Part shown: one piece after another, positions 3,057-9,676 of the stretch
Numbering within the stretch: position 1 is the stretch's first letter
Layout of the letters: the number at the start of each line of letters is the position of its first letter
Origin: Thermoplasmata archaeon
Lineage (GTDB): Archaea; Thermoplasmatota; JASEFT01; JBBABA01
Reading direction: 5' to 3'
NCBI GenBank assembly: GCA_041657955.1
Contig: JBBABA010000006.1
Coordinates: forward strand, 64,566 to 128,565
DNA: 64,000 nucleotides
The notes under the pieces: model-generated
Databases searched by the model: none
Told to the model about the DNA's origin: nothing
What the model saw: the letters and a program-made list of their open reading frames with translations, nothing else
Translations under genes and position numbers: made by a program

Positions 3057-3953
3057 TCAATATTTCTTTAAAGTTGGCGGCGATTTACTGAATTTCTGTG
3101 TATGTAGTCTTTCCCTATTCTTGCGTTTGACACGGATCCAGATTAAGAATACAATGAGTATCAAAAAAGGTACCCAGCACGGGCTGGCGACTTCGCAAAC
3201 AAACAACATGCCGCCCCAGTCAAAAACATACTCTGACTTGTTGCTGGAGACCCCAACAGTCAGTGAATCCATTGAAAAATTGTTCCAATTGAAAGTGATT
3301 ACTTTTTGTCCGTTTTCGTTCACGGTTGTGTTATCTGGTACACGGTAGGTGGTCGCGTCGTCAAATTCTGTGCAATTTGAAACGAATCGTATTGTGACAC
3401 TTTCTATATGACTGCCCCACGCTTCAGTGCCGATAATCTTGTATGAACATCTCCAGTGTTTTATCGATGAAGTGTATGGAATCCATGCACCATAATCTCG
3501 TTCATAATAACAACTGTCAATCGCCCAGTTGACCGATATGTTCTGATGTTGCAATGCGGGAATTTGGGTATCAAATACAATCACATTTGTGTTGTTTATC
3601 GTTTCATCGGATAAAGAAACGGGCGTGCCTTCTACGGCGATACAGGCCGTTCCGCTTTTTGGATGGTAACCAGGATCAAACGCCAATCTAAAAGAATTAG
3701 TTGAGTTCTTCAGATTAATCAAAGTGAAGTTTGCAATTCCGAACGAGATATCTCTCTCCATATAGACGGTAACATTTACTGTTTTTAGTGAAACATTTAC
3801 AGATCTTTCGGGCCATATTGAACTTATGTCTCTTGAAGCTATGCGTACATCCGCAACAGCATTCGATGGTATGAAAGTCGCGATAATTGCCGAGAGTAAT
3901 AGCAAAAACACAATTAATGACAACCTCCCGAATATTGAATTGTTCATCCTCAT
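3057..3953 (-). CDS. Secreted, membrane-anchored surface protein with many N-glycosylation sequons.
   Basis: N-terminal signal peptide, a C-terminal TM helix plus basic tail (LILIVFLIWIRVKRKNRE), and numerous N-x-S/T sites. Confidence 0.5.
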   Translation of the reverse strand: MRMNNSIFGRLSLIVFLLLLSAIIATFIPSNAVADVRIASRDISSIWPERSVNVSLKTVNVTVYMERDISFGIANFTLINLKNSTNSFRLAFDPGYHPKSGTACIAVEGTPVSLSDETINNTNVIVFDTQIPALQHQNISVNWAIDSCYYERDYGAWIPYTSSIKHWRCSYKIIGTEAWGSHIESVTIRFVSNCTEFDDATTYRVPDNTTVNENGQKVITFNWNNFSMDSLTVGVSSNKSEYVFDWGGMLFVCEVASPCWVPFLILIVFLIWIRVKRKNRERLHTQKFSKSPPTLKKY

Positions 3954-4073: not shown

Positions 4074-5393
4074 TTACGTCCTATTCTCGCCTGCGGCCTT
4101 GCGCACCAGGAACAGGTACAAAACGAATATCACTACCAGATACGCAAGAGTCCTGACGACGATCAGGGTGTTTGTCACTAATTCGGTTTGGTTGGAAATC
4201 GTAAGCGTTGCGAGGTGCGAGATTCCAAACAGGCCGAACGCGGCGCCTATGAAAACTGGCATTATGTCCTTCTTTTTGATATAGCCCCACAAGCCAAGAG
4301 CCACTATCGCTGCACAGAGCACCAGATTAACTGCGATTGTCGTATTCCATGTGAACTTGAAGCTCATCTCGCTGCTTTTTACGGCCGTTACTGTTGTACT
4401 CTTTTGGACGAGCCCTGCAGTGATCGGTTTGTTGTCTTTGCAGTTGCCGCCAGGGATACTATATGCAACATCCCCTACTCCGCTTACATCCTTGCCCGTG
4501 TAGTCGTCCCACATATTGCCCTTTGCGCCATCATCCCAATTGTTCGCGCCGTTGTCATATGCTTGTATTGTGTTGTTCGTGAAAGTGTTATAATAAATGT
4601 TGTTGTTGGATGCGGAATATATGTCAATACCGTATGAATTATTTGAGAATGTGGAGTTCCTGAGCGTAACGCCGGTTGAGGCAGCTATGCCGATCCCTAG
4701 ATTAGATTTTGTAACCGAGGAATGCGAGATATAACTGTTCGAGCAGAAAGCGAGGTATATCCCTTCTGCACATCTGGTGAGGCTCGCATTCGTTATTGTC
4801 GTGCTCGGGCTAAATGAAGCATATATACCATCATACGAGCAGTCCGTTATCGTTACCCTGGATATGGTATTGCCTGAACTCTCGACAATACAGATGCCCT
4901 CAGTTGTGCAATCCGTCATTACAACATCAGATACTATATTGCCAGTGCTCGAAAACAGGCCGATGCACGAATCGCATTCTGTAATAGAAATGTTAGACAT
5001 GCTATTGTTTGTGCCTGCCAAAACATGAATGCCGTACCCGAATTTTTCCAATTTCAGATTACTAATGCTAACGTTACTCGCGGTTACGGCGATGCCTTTT
5101 GAACCTGCAACATTCGCACCGCGTATTATCGCCTGGGTGCTCTCGCCTGCGATAGATATGCTCTTATTGACCGCAACGGATTCGCTGTATACTCCGTTGT
5201 AAATATACACTGTATCGCTTGCGTTTGAGGCGTTCACTGCTGCCTGTATTGTTGTATAGTCCATTCCGCCGCTGTCGTCTACCGTGATTGTTCTGGCGCT
5301 TGAATTCACCGCGATCATTGTTATTATAAAAAATATGGCCGCAAACAGTATAATTCCAAATAGTCTTTTGTTGTTCATGCAACGCACCTTCAT
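4074..5393 (-). CDS. Cell-surface protein with a right-handed parallel beta-helix (NosD/pectate-lyase-like) repeat domain and a C-terminal membrane anchor.
   Basis: Signal peptide. Repeated short turns (ISITECD, VTITDCS, ASLTRCAEGIY, ...) typical of PbH1 repeats. Three predicted C-terminal TM helices. Confidence 0.6.
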   Translation of the reverse strand: MKVRCMNNKRLFGIILFAAIFFIITMIAVNSSARTITVDDSGGMDYTTIQAAVNASNASDTVYIYNGVYSESVAVNKSISIAGESTQAIIRGANVAGSKGIAVTASNVSISNLKLEKFGYGIHVLAGTNNSMSNISITECDSCIGLFSSTGNIVSDVVMTDCTTEGICIVESSGNTISRVTITDCSYDGIYASFSPSTTITNASLTRCAEGIYLAFCSNSYISHSSVTKSNLGIGIAASTGVTLRNSTFSNNSYGIDIYSASNNNIYYNTFTNNTIQAYDNGANNWDDGAKGNMWDDYTGKDVSGVGDVAYSIPGGNCKDNKPITAGLVQKSTTVTAVKSSEMSFKFTWNTTIAVNLVLCAAIVALGLWGYIKKKDIMPVFIGAAFGLFGISHLATLTISNQTELVTNTLIVVRTLAYLVVIFVLYLFLVRKAAGENRT

Positions 5394-5567
5394 CGCCGAA
5401 AATTGGTTGTAGGTATATATAATTTGTTTAAAGCAGATTTGTAACCACCTAGATAAAAAATGTTTGATTGCGTGGATAGGAGCGTAAACTGGAGATATGG
5501 GGATTGGTAAAATAAAGGGTTAAATCAAACTAAGATTTACGGACTAAACAACTACATACATTAAATT

Positions 5568-5615
5568 GTAGTGCCTAAAAACTATAGAAATTATTATATA
5601 CAATTTAGGCACTAC
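5568..5615. repeat. 48-bp palindromic element, copy 1 (12-bp stem GTAGTGCCTAAA / TTTAGGCACTAC, 24-nt loop).
   Basis: Perfect 12-bp inverted repeat read directly from the sequence. The loop contains a TATA-like ttattatatac 25-30 nt before the Fic ATG. Confidence 0.8.
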
Positions 5616-5623
5616 ATTATATC

Positions 5624-6589
5624 ATGGCATTTATCCGCGCGAAATTCATCAATGGAGAATATTACTACTATCTTGTCGAATCACGACGCGCCGGCGGAAA
5701 AATTTTACAGGAGACCATAAAATATCTGGGTGCTCGCAGCGAGGCTGAGAAATATGCAGAAACACACAATCTCAAACTCACGGCACCGCGCAGTGCCTTT
5801 CCGATAAAAGCTGAAACATCTCTTGATAAATTAATCGAACTAAAGAAAAAACGATTGTCGAAACTCCGCAGAAACCCGACAATCGAACGTAGATTAAGGG
5901 ATGATATTGCAGTTATCTGGACATATAACTCTACCGCTATTGAGGGCAGTACCCTGAATTTGAAGGAAACCGCACTGCTTCTTCAAGATGGTGTAGCGTC
6001 CGGCAACAAGGCGTTAACCGACTATATGACGGCAGAAGGCCATCGGGATGCTGTGAATATCGTTTATAATTTTGTCGAAAGCAGGCAAACCATCGATGAA
6101 CCCTCGATACTCGCACTTCACAAGGCAGTATTGAAAGGCAATTTTGACGTTCACGTTATCGGAGAATACAGGGACGTACCTGTTTGGATAAGGGGTTCAT
6201 CTTATGTTCCCCCGCCACCAGAGCAGGTGCCTGCATTTATGAAAAAGTTAATCACTCTGGCCAATTCAAACCCAAAACGCCTTGATCCGATAACCCTATC
6301 GGCAATGGTGCACCTGGATTTTGAATCCGTTCACCCGTTTGCTGACGGGAACGGCAGGGTAGGCAGGCTCCTAAGCAACTGGATCCTTATGAAACACAAA
6401 TATCCGCCGATCATCATAGAGAACAGCGAGAAAAAGAAGTACTTCACAGCCCTGGAAAACGCGCAAACAAGGCACGACAAAACCGGTTTGCTGAGGTTTT
6501 TCAAAAAGAAGACGAATCTGGCACTGGATTTTCATCTTGAACGGTTGGATCCGGATTACAAAAAATGGATGAAGACTCTGAAAATGTAG
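5624..6589 (+). CDS. Fic-family AMP-transferase, class II (with N-terminal inhibitory helix motif).
   Basis: Canonical Fic motif HPFADGNGRVGR. Upstream STAIEG matches the [ST]xxxE[GN] inhibitory helix signature. Confidence 0.85.
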   Translation: MAFIRAKFINGEYYYYLVESRRAGGKILQETIKYLGARSEAEKYAETHNLKLTAPRSAFPIKAETSLDKLIELKKKRLSKLRRNPTIERRLRDDIAVIWTYNSTAIEGSTLNLKETALLLQDGVASGNKALTDYMTAEGHRDAVNIVYNFVESRQTIDEPSILALHKAVLKGNFDVHVIGEYRDVPVWIRGSSYVPPPPEQVPAFMKKLITLANSNPKRLDPITLSAMVHLDFESVHPFADGNGRVGRLLSNWILMKHKYPPIIIENSEKKKYFTALENAQTRHDKTGLLRFFKKKTNLALDFHLERLDPDYKKWMKTLKM

Positions 6590-6633
6590 TGCCTAAAAAG
6601 TATGGAAAGTTTTGGGTTGGATTTAGGCACTAC
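6586..6633. repeat. 48-bp palindromic element, copy 2 (same 12-bp stem and 24-nt loop). It overlaps the Fic stop codon.
   Basis: The identical GTAGTGCCTAAA ... TTTAGGCACTAC arms. The loop is partially similar to copy 1. It lies between convergent genes. Confidence 0.8.
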
Positions 6634-6660
6634 GGGGTGGGGGTTTGAGGACACACAAAT

Positions 6661-6840
6661 TCAGATTTTATACTCGGTGTGTTTTTCGCCTATTCCAGAA
6701 GTCCTATAATGCCCTTTATTACATTTGGAGCAATAGTACATCTCTTCAATCTTATATTTTATATGTTCTTTGCCTATTCCTGAACCTTTCCAATGTCCCT
6801 TGCTACATTTTGAACAATAGTAGTATTTTTCATCAGCCAT
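6661..6840 (-). CDS. 59-aa small protein with a tandem duplicated C-x2-C-x3-H ... H motif (putative metal-binding).
   Basis: Manual translation: MADEKYYYCSKCSKGHWKGSGIGKEHIKYKIEEMYYCSKCNKGHYRTSGIGEKHTEYKI. GGAGG SD about 10 nt upstream. It is below the tracker size cutoff. It is co-oriented with, and 22 nt downstream of, the 135-aa ORF. Confidence 0.5.
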   Translation of the reverse strand: MADEKYYYCSKCSKGHWKGSGIGKEHIKYKIEEMYYCSKCNKGHYRTSGIGEKHTEYKI

Positions 6841-6862
6841 AAATATTGAACCTCCTGGTTTG

Positions 6863-7270
6863 TTACAAATCTCGTTTTTCAGTTTGTTGTTCTTCGAGCT
6901 TTTTCATTACCATTCGTTCTAGGTTTCGCTTTACCCTCGGATGCATGCTAGTTGCTTCTGTGAATCTTTTTCCCTTTCCTGGAAGAGCCGCCATGCTTAC
7001 TATATATTCTTGCACTAATTCTCCCCAACTGGTCTCCTTGTGTAAATACCGGTTGCAATGTGTTCGTGATGCATACCCCACAAATACTTGCCAATCGATA
7101 TTGTGTAGTTTTAAGTCGTTTTTCCAATATTTCCATAAATGACTGGCAACTTTTTTGTCGATGTCAATTTCAGTTGCACTTTTAAGAAATTCTTCATCGG
7201 GTTCGGGTGGATTTTTTAATGTAACGTCTAACCACTTGCCCTTTACTCTCATTGTTGATTCCTCTTCCAT
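6863..7270 (-). CDS. Hypothetical protein (about 135 aa from the internal ATG).
   Basis: ORF co-oriented with the recombinase and the 59-aa ORF. No recognisable motifs. The start choice is uncertain. Confidence 0.4.
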   Translation of the reverse strand: MEEESTMRVKGKWLDVTLKNPPEPDEEFLKSATEIDIDKKVASHLWKYWKNDLKLHNIDWQVFVGYASRTHCNRYLHKETSWGELVQEYIVSMAALPGKGKRFTEATSMHPRVKRNLERMVMKKLEEQQTEKRDL

Positions 7271-7704
7271 TTTTATCGTTATGATAATAAAATAAACACC
7301 CTTTGAGATATTAAACCTTCCTAAAATCGAGAGGTTGTTACGTTCTTCCATCCAACAAGAGAGAGATCATCTCTTCGTAGGGGGATATATAATGTGGTAT
7401 TACACAAACATATAGAATGGCAAATAGCATTATCTATAATACACTCTCCTCCCCCTAAACGTGTCTGTTTCCCCGTCCTCCAATCGATATCACAGTTAAT
7501 AACTCCAAATCCTTTATTTCATAAACTTATTCTCGATAGCAACTTAACAAAATAACTATATAATAGAGTATACGACATATAGTAATATATTTTATTTAAT
7601 ATTGTTAAGTAAATATCGTTATTCTATTATCTTTTATCATATTTATCGTTATATTGTAATTTTAGGCCTATTTTGTTACATATAATGTAGTGTATTTTAT
7701 CTTG

Positions 7705-8391
7705 TTATAGTATCTTTTCAACACTTCCTATGATTTTTCCGTTTAATCTAACTTCGCCGGTTCGATAAATCGGATTTTTCAATATAGTCTGAAGCGAGCT
7801 ACGTTTAAGGTTGTACTTCTCGCTTAACTGCGTCCACGACATCCCGTTTGCCTTATCTTTGAACATCTCGCGTATCTTGTCTATCTGCTCTGGATCGGGC
7901 ACAAGTTTGTGCTCTACCATTTTATATCCAAACGGCGGCCTGCATACATAATGCCCTTTTGAAAGTGCAGTTTCCTTGCCGTGCCTAGTCCTCTCAACCG
8001 CCAAATCACGTTCATATTCCGCAGCCGCCAGCAATACGGTTGATTGGAGTTTTCCTGCAGGCGATAATCTGTCCACTGTGCCTTGGTCTGTAGAGCTGAA
8101 TAATTTTAATCCCATTCCATCGAAAGTCTTGAAAACCTGGAGCAGGTCCTCGAGCTTTCTGCCCAATCTATCAACGCGATAAACTAACACGCCGTCAAAT
8201 CCTTTGTATCTTGCGGAACGGAGCATGGCCTGAAATCCTGAACGGTCGAGCGTTTTCCCACTCTTTGCTTCATCAGCAAACTCTGTAAAAATTGTATGGC
8301 TGTGCTCTTTCGCCCATTTTATAAGATGTTCACGCTGCATGTCTACGCTTTGATCGTCTGTAGAAACCCGCAAATACAGTGCTAACTTCAT
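7705..8391 (-). CDS. Serine recombinase, resolvase/invertase family (N-terminal catalytic domain, C-terminal HTH).
   Basis: YLRVSTDDQS catalytic serine motif near the N-terminus and VYRVDRLGR. Size about 228 aa with a C-terminal HTH-like segment. Confidence 0.85.
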   Translation of the reverse strand: MKLALYLRVSTDDQSVDMQREHLIKWAKEHSHTIFTEFADEAKSGKTLDRSGFQAMLRSARYKGFDGVLVYRVDRLGRKLEDLLQVFKTFDGMGLKLFSSTDQGTVDRLSPAGKLQSTVLLAAAEYERDLAVERTRHGKETALSKGHYVCRPPFGYKMVEHKLVPDPEQIDKIREMFKDKANGMSWTQLSEKYNLKRSSLQTILKNPIYRTGEVRLNGKIIGSVEKIL

Positions 8392-8813: not shown

Positions 8814-9293
8814 TTACACTCTTGCGAAAATCACGGTGGTAGGGCCACCTTGCTTTTCCCAGCACTTCGGGCAATTCGCGACCCAGGTGTATATCTTTGC
8901 CGGTTTCTTCTTCTCGTTATTTTCAACGAAATTTACGAGTTCGTGTATCTCTTTCGTCAATCCCTTAAACTGACCCCGATAGTATTTTGAATAAAGAGTC
9001 GCAGGCTCCCATACTTCGATGTTGGGATCGCCTTTCGGCATTTCCTCTATAGCTATCAGCATATTTGCGGAAAATAAGCCAGTCTCATCGTCAAGCATCA
9101 TATAAGGCGGCTTGAACGTGTAGCCTTTTTCTTTGATTTCATTCATGCCTTTATTGATGGCTTTGCCTATGCCTATCGGCATGTGAAAAAATATTGAGTG
9201 CTTTGTTTTATAGAACGCTCTCGTATCCCAGTTGTGTTTCTTCAGATTCCAGTCTTCCTTGTTTAACTTTGGGCAGCAACAATCGTTTTCCAT
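8814..9293 (-). CDS. Hypothetical protein (159 aa), Cys-containing (CCC near the N-terminus, CPKC near the C-terminus).
   Basis: ORF only. No recognisable family. Confidence 0.4.
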   Translation of the reverse strand: MENDCCCPKLNKEDWNLKKHNWDTRAFYKTKHSIFFHMPIGIGKAINKGMNEIKEKGYTFKPPYMMLDDETGLFSANMLIAIEEMPKGDPNIEVWEPATLYSKYYRGQFKGLTKEIHELVNFVENNEKKKPAKIYTWVANCPKCWEKQGGPTTVIFARV

Positions 9294-9676
9294 TTTTCAT
9301 CACCACATTATACTTTATATTCTCCGCTCATGATTCGTGTGTTTAAAAGATTTTTCTTATCTAAAATCGTAAATTTTTATTATTTTTGCATATATGTTGT
9401 TTATTTTAATATATAACGTAATTAACTTAATAATATTATGCAAATGGGCGATATTACATTTTCTAGGCGATGTGCAAGCGAGTATGTTAATAGATATAGT
9501 ATAATTAGTTGATATAATGTCGTTATTAACTTAACAAAAATAAGTATAATGTATTATATAGGGAAAGATATCAGTTTTCGTCCGCTTCACGGCATTTGCG
9601 AATGGAGATGTGGTGCATATTTCACCATGTCAATTTTTGGTTATACTGTTCTAGTTGGGGAGTGGGGGTTGCAACC

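Follow-up and report, generated by a model that had tools for sequence, protein, structure and literature searches.

Phd/Doc is an autoregulated toxin/antitoxin system with palindromic operators over its own promoter, and self-repression is the usual way in which toxin-like or defence effectors are held at low, buffered levels. In class II Fic proteins, the inhibitory motif is located N-terminal to the Fic core. In insertion sequences and mobile insertion cassettes, the left inverted repeat contains part of the promoter, the right one contains or adjoins the stop codon, and the encoded protein binds both ends. AbiEi also binds inverted repeats (PMC7319586). The locus described here lies in a 64,000-nucleotide stretch of DNA from a Thermoplasmata archaeon (assembly GCA_041657955.1, contig JBBABA010000006.1, positions 64,566 to 128,565 of the forward strand), referred to as the window, and consists of a Fic gene between two hairpins with identical arms. 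Comparisons with related loci suggest, with moderate confidence, that the hairpins are paired duplex operators for the autoregulation of Fic, the downstream copy being auxiliary.

The locus shares with Phd/Doc and AbiEi a toxin-like effector, a locus-encoded DNA-binding module (here putative), inverted repeats overlapping the core promoter and more than one operator copy. Unlike in these systems, the binding module is fused to the N terminus of the effector instead of forming a separate antitoxin, and the domain belongs to no annotated family. Its half-sites are 24-26 bp apart with the TATA box between them, a second operator is placed at the stop codon, and binding itself is what we infer here. 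The protein resembles SoFic-type single-gene defence proteins and class II Fic AMP-transferases in its HPFx[D/E]GNGR core and intramolecular inhibitory motif, and matches the PADLOC models SoFic (2e-33) and PDC-S04 (1e-35). It differs from SoFic-type proteins in an extra 50-residue N-terminal sheet domain and in the putative operator pairs that flank its gene, and its score of 36.8 bits with the NCBIfam SoFic equivalog is far under the cut-off of 550. Autoregulated toxin or defence genes are a known kind of system. In the libraries and papers searched, no earlier description was apparent for the N-terminal domain, for its near-invariant site common to archaea and bacteria or for the promoter-in-spacer design; in the literature, no paper was found with the 12-mer arm and none describing the module.

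Paired inverted repeats around the Fic gene

Both hairpins are 48 nt long and have 12-nt arms, GTAGTGCCTAAA and TTTAGGCACTAC, that are identical between the copies. Hairpin 1 (5568-5615, plus strand) has its half-sites at 5568-5579 and 5604-5615, separated by a 24-nt spacer that holds the putative promoter. Hairpin 2 (6586-6633, plus strand) has its half-sites at 6586-6597 and 6622-6633, and its 24-nt spacer contains no TATA box. The arrangement GTAGTGCCTAAA-N24-TTTAGGCACTAC occurs twice in the 64-kb window and in none of 100 dinucleotide-preserving shuffles, and single arms with two or fewer mismatches are found elsewhere in the window at no more than chance level. An earlier sequence-only reading of this DNA had called the hairpins identical, which is right for the arms and wrong for the loops, which match at only 14 of 24 positions, mainly in their 5' halves.

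Its coordinates were verified: hairpin 1 ends 8 nt upstream of the Fic ATG (5624), hairpin 2 begins at the last base of the final sense codon and spans the stop codon, and the outer edges of the two elements enclose 1066 bp. The TAG stop codon (6587-6589) is located inside the 5' arm of hairpin 2. Two of the three reading frames entering GTAGTGCCTAAA run into a stop codon (TAG or TAA), so the position of the stop within the arm is largely a consequence of the open reading frame (ORF) abutting the hairpin. The abutment itself is kept in orthologs.

Putative promoter between the upstream half-sites

The TATA box ATTATATA (5593-5600, plus strand) lies in loop 1, preceded by the purine-rich GAAAT, which resembles a B recognition element (BRE). 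Its centre is ~27 nt upstream of the ATG, and no Shine-Dalgarno sequence is present between the two. In archaeal promoter geometry, such a TATA-to-ATG distance predicts a leaderless mRNA; the Fic transcript would start at ~5623-5624, and hairpin 1 would therefore not be part of it. The earlier claim that hairpin 1 carries the promoter agrees with these features. The accompanying claim that its loop contains the only TATA-like sequence upstream has to be narrowed, as another is found near 5417-5430, ~190 nt off, leaving loop 1 as the sole one at promoter distance.

The same arrangement was seen in the related loci, which were retrieved as DNA around hairpin, Fic or N-terminal domain matches and are labelled L with a number. 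All 18 start-proximal hairpins, defined as unique hairpins located 8-10 nt upstream of a start codon, contain a TATA-like box within the last 13 nt of the loop, at its 3' end, with a purine-rich stretch before it, whereas only 4 of the 45 other hairpins have one in either orientation. The half-sites thus flank the TATA box in 18/18 promoter-proximal copies. In a bacterial-type locus (L042), TGTGTTATACT is located within the loop, i.e. the loop overlaps the -10 element, and in two others (L062 and L065) TTGACA is followed after 17 nt by TACAAT or TACACT overlapping the half-site GGCACTAC. These comparisons support a Fic promoter in loop 1, between the two upstream half-sites.

The Fic protein and its N-terminal domain

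The Fic gene (5624-6589, plus strand) encodes a SoFic-like protein of 321 residues. It matches the Pfam Fic family (PF02661) with an E value of 2.6e-21 and 76.7 bits against a cut-off of 24. The catalytic pattern HxFx[D/E]GNGRxxR is satisfied by HPFADGNGRVGR at residues 237-248, within which the motif HPFADGNGR occupies residues 237-245 (6332-6358, plus strand). The putative inhibitory-helix motif STAIEG, of the pattern [S/T]xxxE[G/N], is found at residues 103-108 (5930-5947, plus strand), N-terminal to the Fic core. As judged from these motifs, and as the sequence-only reading had proposed, the protein is a class II Fic protein with its inhibitory motif on the same chain.

Residues 1-50 (MAFIRAKFINGEYYYYLVESRRAGGKILQETIKYLG...; 5624-5773, plus strand) form a separate domain of three predicted beta strands and a helix, the putative half-site binder, hereafter the N-domain. 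Its AlphaFold2 model (pLDDT 96) shows three long strands, a helix and many basic residues. The pattern of this ~50-residue domain is MAFIR..YYYLVES.R..GK.RQ..YLG, and the proteins that start directly after such a hairpin all open with M-[AYF]-F-I-R, followed by YYYLVES.R..GK.RQ..YLG. No family matched the N-domain in Pfam, NCBIfam, PHROG or PADLOC. When 1.84 billion representatives were searched with a profile of the domain, 4725 clusters at 50% identity were returned; the best 150 of these are all 40-235 residues long with the domain mostly at the N terminus, and only short proteins were among the matches listed in the word-based and profile searches. No viral relatives of the N-domain were found. 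Transposases of the IS1634 type may open with a similar motif. The predicted order of three antiparallel strands and a helix, the basic pattern, similar to GRWEARY..GKRK..YGKT, and the common integrase neighbours recall arm-type/AP2-like integrase domains. However, there is no significant structural or sequence match to them, and Pfam AP2 is not matched by the Fic N-domain, so that the resemblance is a lead only.

In a local profile search, nearly all true-hairpin loci proved to contain an N-domain ORF, in most cases no more than 250 nt from the hairpin, and the N-domain is the only protein feature common to almost all of them. Its C-terminal partner varies between Fic, other proteins and nothing. 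The domain heads a non-Fic protein of 163 residues in two loci (L023 and L035) and proteins of 120-141 residues in bacterial-type loci (L020, L027, L028, L042, L045, L049, L053 and L058), in which the hairpin usually overlaps the stop codon of the small gene and precedes an integrase or HTH_17 (Xis-like) gene. More generally, the hairpin or the half-site GGCACTAC accompanies N-domain genes, often beside integrases or serine recombinases.

The association was also seen independently of the hairpin, in eight N-domain genes chosen by protein similarity alone. Six of them (L060, L061, L062, L065, L067 and L069) have GGCACTAC or GTAGTGCC at the promoter. In one similarity-chosen case, on a plasmid of Synechococcus PCC 6312, TTGTAGTGCCCACA-N21-TGTGGGCACTACAA lies 7 nt upstream of an ATG that opens MFVRW, and the inner four pairs of this site are altered symmetrically. 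In L061, TAGTGCCTAAT-N12-ATTAGGCACTAC is placed across the stop codon, with a half-site upstream and an integrase gene nearby; L069 has GGCACTACAAT-N8-GTAGTGCCTAAAC-ATG, and L067 has GGCACTAC ahead of the likely true start. In L064, two direct copies of the motif are found only ~270-370 nt downstream of the N-domain gene, and the N-domain gene of L063 has no half-site. That the arms are the conserved partner of the own N-domain of Fic favours regulation through a bound protein over a structural role of the hairpin.

Two further arrangements were observed in these loci. N-domain ORFs of 52-64 residues overlap the start of large serine recombinase genes (Resolvase and Recombinase domains) in L062 (3001-4766) and L067 (2501-4320), which suggests co-translated pairs. 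In L046 (4630-5941), a tyrosine integrase gene ends inside a hairpin of the main type with an unusually long loop of 36 nt; a search of the 11.5 kb retrieved for this locus revealed no N-domain ORF.

Half-sites as the likely functional unit

A two-arm scan of species-representative genomes and metagenomes yielded ~45 loci with full arms, from Micrarchaeota, Burarchaeum, Woesearchaeota, a Methanobacteriota metagenome-assembled genome (MAG), a Rhodothermales MAG and several bacterial-type contigs. Each locus has one or two hairpin copies, with one locus per genome in the species-representative scan. The loop sequences are unrelated except for the TATA box. The loop length is 24-26 nt in the archaeal type (45 of 47 hairpins, including copies without a promoter) and 12-22 nt in the bacterial type. 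In a large Micrarchaeota clade of Fic proteins ~50% identical to the window protein, two hairpins precede the gene in tandem, in the order hpA, a gap of 17-19 nt of variable sequence, hpB, 8-9 nt and the ATG; no hairpin of this type was found downstream of Fic in this clade. The tight archaeal spacing and the constant length of the tandem gap suggest a geometric constraint from a bound protein.

Changes within the arms are one-sided in 11 cases, two-sided but pair-breaking in one and symmetric in three, with no G-U pattern, and the symmetric changes are confined to two distant relatives. The prevalence of one-sided over symmetric changes (11 vs. 3) indicates that there is no selection for pairing as such. 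Half-sites also occur singly, as direct repeats and in divergent orientation (L026, L061, L062, L064 and L069). On this comparative evidence, the likely functional unit is the half-site rather than the hairpin.

Paralogous Fic-like genes on the same Micrarchaeota contigs have other half-sites at their own promoters, namely GTAGTCAC, in direct repeats around the TATA box, and the pairs TTATCTTAC / GTAAGATAA and ATGGCTACA / TGTAGCCAT. Such paralog-specific half-sites are as expected of operators diverging with their binding domains, not of a structural hairpin. Thus, across relatives, site and N-domain both co-occur and co-vary. A second type of stop-codon hairpin, GGTGACTAC-N12-13-GTAGTCACC, present in some of these paralogs, spans the TGA of the Fic genes in L011, L025, L026 and L055. 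A distinct hairpin, GTTATCAC-N19-27-GTGATAAC, adjoins the main hairpin in several Micrarchaeota and Burarchaeum loci (L055 1691-1762, L026 3097-3137, also L025, L052, L043 and L015).

Longer perfect hairpins built on the same 11-mer as the main arms, TAGTGCCTAAA, with a different first base and often extended (...AAAGGCAC), were seen in L007, L008, L009, L012, L016 and L019. They come from Flavobacterium, Loktanella, Thermoflexus, Omnitrophica and Bacteroidetes contigs, have no N-domain ORF nearby, and exceed the roughly one chance match estimated from pattern length and database size.

A proposed model of paired operators

In the proposed mechanism, each hairpin would be a bipartite operator of two inverted 12-bp half-sites with the core TGTAGTGCC, their centres 36-38 bp apart. 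The half-sites would be bound by the three-stranded-sheet N-domain of Fic, probably as a dimer or higher oligomer. Since the upstream half-sites flank the BRE/TATA of a putatively leaderless promoter, the bound protein would obstruct TBP/TFB or RNA polymerase and thereby switch off its own production. The location of the site at the core promoter, around the TATA box in archaea and overlapping the -10 element in bacterial relatives, is as an operator would have it. The downstream copy, which abuts the stop codon and has lost the TATA box, would most likely be an auxiliary operator that works through looping or cooperative binding, or as a roadblock to transcription from the convergent gene. 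The corresponding 3' site of bacterial relatives holds the promoter of the following gene, which is often an integrase gene. The promoter, the regulator domain, the effector and the second site would together make up a compact, self-contained module of ~1.07 kb. This unit has passed from one archaeal lineage to another, frequently in the setting of integrative elements or defence islands.

Several observations weigh against the operator model. Foldseek detected no significant relative of the N-domain (best PDB match E = 0.27), and the arm-type integrase domains (PDB 3jtz and 3rmp) reached only E ~0.5-0.7 with poor TM scores. Solo hairpins are present in L013, L015, L021, L038, L044 and L046, where the 8 kb retrieved contain no N-domain gene. 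The 12-mer does not vary between archaeal and bacterial N-domains that are only 30-40% identical, which is unusually conservative for an operator. The count of perfect arms, 47 of 60 unique hairpins (including copies with two or fewer mismatches per arm), is biased upward because perfect arms were used to seed the collection. The function suggested above for the downstream copy is speculative. Finally, the comparisons of the window with L004 and of L055 with L026, given below, suggest that the hairpins also mark recombination boundaries.

Orthologous loci and possible mobility

The Fic orthologs retrieved with their DNA have protein identities of 85% (L004), 73%, 72% and 52%. The Fic gene is also present in the samples SRR8449812, ERZ27249422 and JGI 3300028032. 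The compact unit of hairpin, Fic gene and hairpin persists across at least four genomic contexts, beside NosD (the window and the related strain L059), GH57 (L004) and AFOR (L005, L006 and L018, which represent one orthologous locus) and in L034, in keeping with the earlier description of a self-contained unit. In the related strain, the flanks are ~87% identical to the window and hairpin 1 is 100% identical, including the loop. Hairpin 1 with the TATA box at the same position and the ATG 8 nt away is kept in L004, L005, L006, L018 and L034, and in L005 and L006 it directly follows the stop codon of the upstream gene. L005 and L018 retain hairpin 2 with the stop codon inside the arm, and L034 has it with the stop codon in the loop. 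Hairpin 2 is displaced by 28-30 nt in L004 through a small insertion with a duplication, and is deleted in L006 relative to its near relative L018. The two loops of L018 match at 19 of 24 positions; therefore, the two hairpin copies share an origin.

In L004 (4300-4345), a 13-nt duplication (TGAAATTGTAGT...) surrounds a 17-nt insert between the Fic stop codon and hairpin 2, which looks like a small insertion or slippage at the hairpin edge. The AFOR-context loci have a further inverted repeat, GCAGGGAGGAAT...TTCCTCCCTGC, 30-70 nt downstream of hairpin 2 (L005 4740-4830, L006 1700-1790 and L018 ~3560-3650, minus strand).

The surroundings of the module include AbiEii, HEPN, RelE-like (judged from sequence), SLFN/AlbA_2, AAA_14-DUF4143 and integrase genes. 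The many contexts, the several phyla and the defence or integrative surroundings clearly point to horizontal transfer of the module. A different question is whether the hairpins themselves are the ends or recombination sites of a ~1.07-kb gene unit that is excised and inserted whole; the outermost 12-mers would then be terminal inverted repeats, or sites for a recombinase acting in trans, possibly recruited by N-domain proteins. We consider this unlikely. The diversity of contexts fits such a cassette, the Micrarchaeota module alone occurring in at least eight. However, both hairpins of that clade lie 5' of the gene, so that there is no bracket, and no target-site duplications were found in the flanks of any copy. 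The low copy number, with one or two copies per locus and one locus per species-representative genome, and the lack of hairpins in viral contigs (0 matches) also argue against it.

Two comparisons also speak for a cassette. The window and L004 Fic genes are 69% identical at third codon positions, and no similarity was found outward of hairpin 2. In L055 and L026, the flanks are 79% identical, but different Fic alleles lie exactly between a main hairpin and a 3' hairpin. However, the swap of alleles between conserved sites can come from ordinary homologous recombination, and upstream of hairpin 1 the window and L004 possibly share ~65 nt, a weak similarity (z ~3.4; 1 of 200 shuffles scored higher). 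The bracket that had been described as base-precise is thus not clearly so at its left edge. A search for an empty site through the NosD neighbour reached one related strain, L059, which has the same hairpin and Fic gene, and no site lacking Fic but keeping one hairpin was found there.

Recombinase genes are often found nearby, with tyrosine integrases in L015, L042/L048, L046 and L061, the serine recombinase genes overlapped by N-domain ORFs (L062 and L067) and a serine recombinase in the window (7705-8391, minus strand). However, there is no recombinase within 5-9 kb in L005 and L018, and the 12-24-12 spacing is, to our knowledge, unlike any known tyrosine or serine recombinase crossover site. 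The suggestion that the hairpins determine mobility is not supported as it stands.

Comparisons with described elements give a similar picture. Like insertion sequences, the unit has identical 12-bp inverted sequences at its outer edges, the promoter in the left element, the stop codon in the right one and an encoded protein that probably binds both ends. Unlike insertion sequences, it has no transposase domain, each of its ends is a complete palindrome, and many relatives carry both elements on one side of the gene. Like integron cassettes, it is a single accessory gene bounded by inverted-repeat elements, with allele replacement (L055 vs. L026). Unlike those cassettes, it has no extrahelical bases, no GTTRRRY/RYYYAAC edge cores, no IntI and no array, and it has its own promoter; sequence conservation is seen in its arms, whereas attC sites are conserved solely in structure.

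Several identities were rejected. Integron attC sites do not fit the perfect, sequence-conserved arms with edges GTAGTG/CACTAC and the TATA promoter of the unit, and no tyrosine recombinase was found among the window ORFs scanned (3-10 kb). IS200/IS605, PATE and REP/REPIN elements do not fit one or two copies per locus and two copies in 64 kb, and no Y1/HUH transposase (TnpA or RAYT) was found among the eight neighbouring ORFs scanned (3-10 kb). A miniature inverted-repeat transposable element, mobile insertion cassette or composite transposon would fit the inverted outer 12-mers but not the lack of target-site duplications. An invertible promoter served by the serine recombinase 1.1 kb away was rejected because a segment of 24 bp is much too short and the recombinase is missing from the orthologous loci. 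A virus-borne element was rejected on the lack of viral hairpins and of viral N-domain relatives, and a known RNA family because none matched in Rfam (searched within 5000-7200). No tRNA gene was found as a potential attachment site in the first 20 kb of the window.

Other explanations of the hairpins

The sites may instead be bound by another factor, such as a host regulator or the integrase or excisionase of the surrounding element; the link to the N-domain would in that case stem from the common descent of a promoter plus 5' coding segment. The solo hairpins without a nearby N-domain gene, the hairpin at the tyrosine integrase stop codon in L046 and the invariance of the 12-mer across very divergent N-domains are consistent with such a factor. 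However, the N-domain is the only protein feature in almost all loci, the neighbouring recombinases belong to different superfamilies or are absent, and paralog-specific half-sites track paralogous N-domains, which makes another factor rather unlikely.

A broader proposal, which appears quite improbable, is that the N-domain and the TGTAGTGCC sites constitute an undescribed targeting system of bacteria and archaea. Small N-domain proteins would guide tyrosine or serine recombinases to these palindromes, and the hairpin-gene-hairpin units, this Fic gene among them, would be a new kind of mobile cassette that spreads from one archaeal phylum to another through recombination at the palindromes.

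The least probable explanation is a folded nucleic acid, with hairpin 2 as an RNA 3'-end, stability or termination element and hairpin 1 as an insulator or terminator for upstream transcription, or with both as DNA cruciforms or single-strand hairpins like integron attC or IS200/IS605 ends; both hairpins do fold much better than shuffled sequence (RNA ~-19 kcal/mol, z -5.3 for hairpin 1 and -3.9 for hairpin 2; single-strand DNA -13 and -9.9 kcal/mol, z -5.5 and -5.9), the stop codon lies in the 5' arm of two hairpin types (TAG in GTAGTG and TGA in GTGACTAC) and hairpin 1 of L005 and L006 immediately follows the stop codon of an upstream gene, but the arm changes are mostly one-sided and pair-breaking, half-sites also occur singly and as direct repeats, hairpin 1 is upstream of the predicted transcript start, no oligo-T tract follows hairpin 2, no Rfam family matches, and the perfect 12-bp stems without bulges or a GTTRRRY core are unlike attC.

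Neighbouring genes in the window

The unit lies beside a NosD-like gene, and the serine recombinase gene is 1.1 kb downstream of it. A Cys/His-rich ORF of 59 residues (6661-6840, minus strand), convergent with Fic, contains an internal tandem duplication (6665-6738 and 6749-6822, 84-nt period, 72% identical); its Pfam matches are weak, sub-threshold and to small metal-binding domains only. A search for repeats that could bound an island, at ~3-12 kb, had as its sole outcome a weak 25-nt direct repeat (7528-7552 and 9515-9539, 80% identical, core AACTTAACAAAA). It encloses the serine recombinase gene and a Bact_hydrolase gene (8814-9293, minus strand), and may delimit a small recombinase-borne element. 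Beside the NosD-like gene, a gene for a 298-residue membrane protein (3057-3953, minus strand) is absent from the contig of the related strain L059, which directly joins the equivalents of window positions ~4073 and ~2852, a strain-level indel.

Significance

If the paired-operator model is true, an unannotated DNA-binding domain family of ~4,700 clusters at 50% identity would be identified together with its cognate site, which is nearly unchanged between a cyanobacterial plasmid and Thermoplasmata and DPANN archaea. The model would account for a gene that appears bracketed though there is no transposon. The locus would illustrate one way of controlling a toxin or defence effector in archaea, with the regulator fused to the effector and the operators placed around a leaderless promoter. 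The TGTAGTGCC palindrome beside an ORF starting with MAFIR would then be a signature of mobile and defence islands in poorly known archaea.

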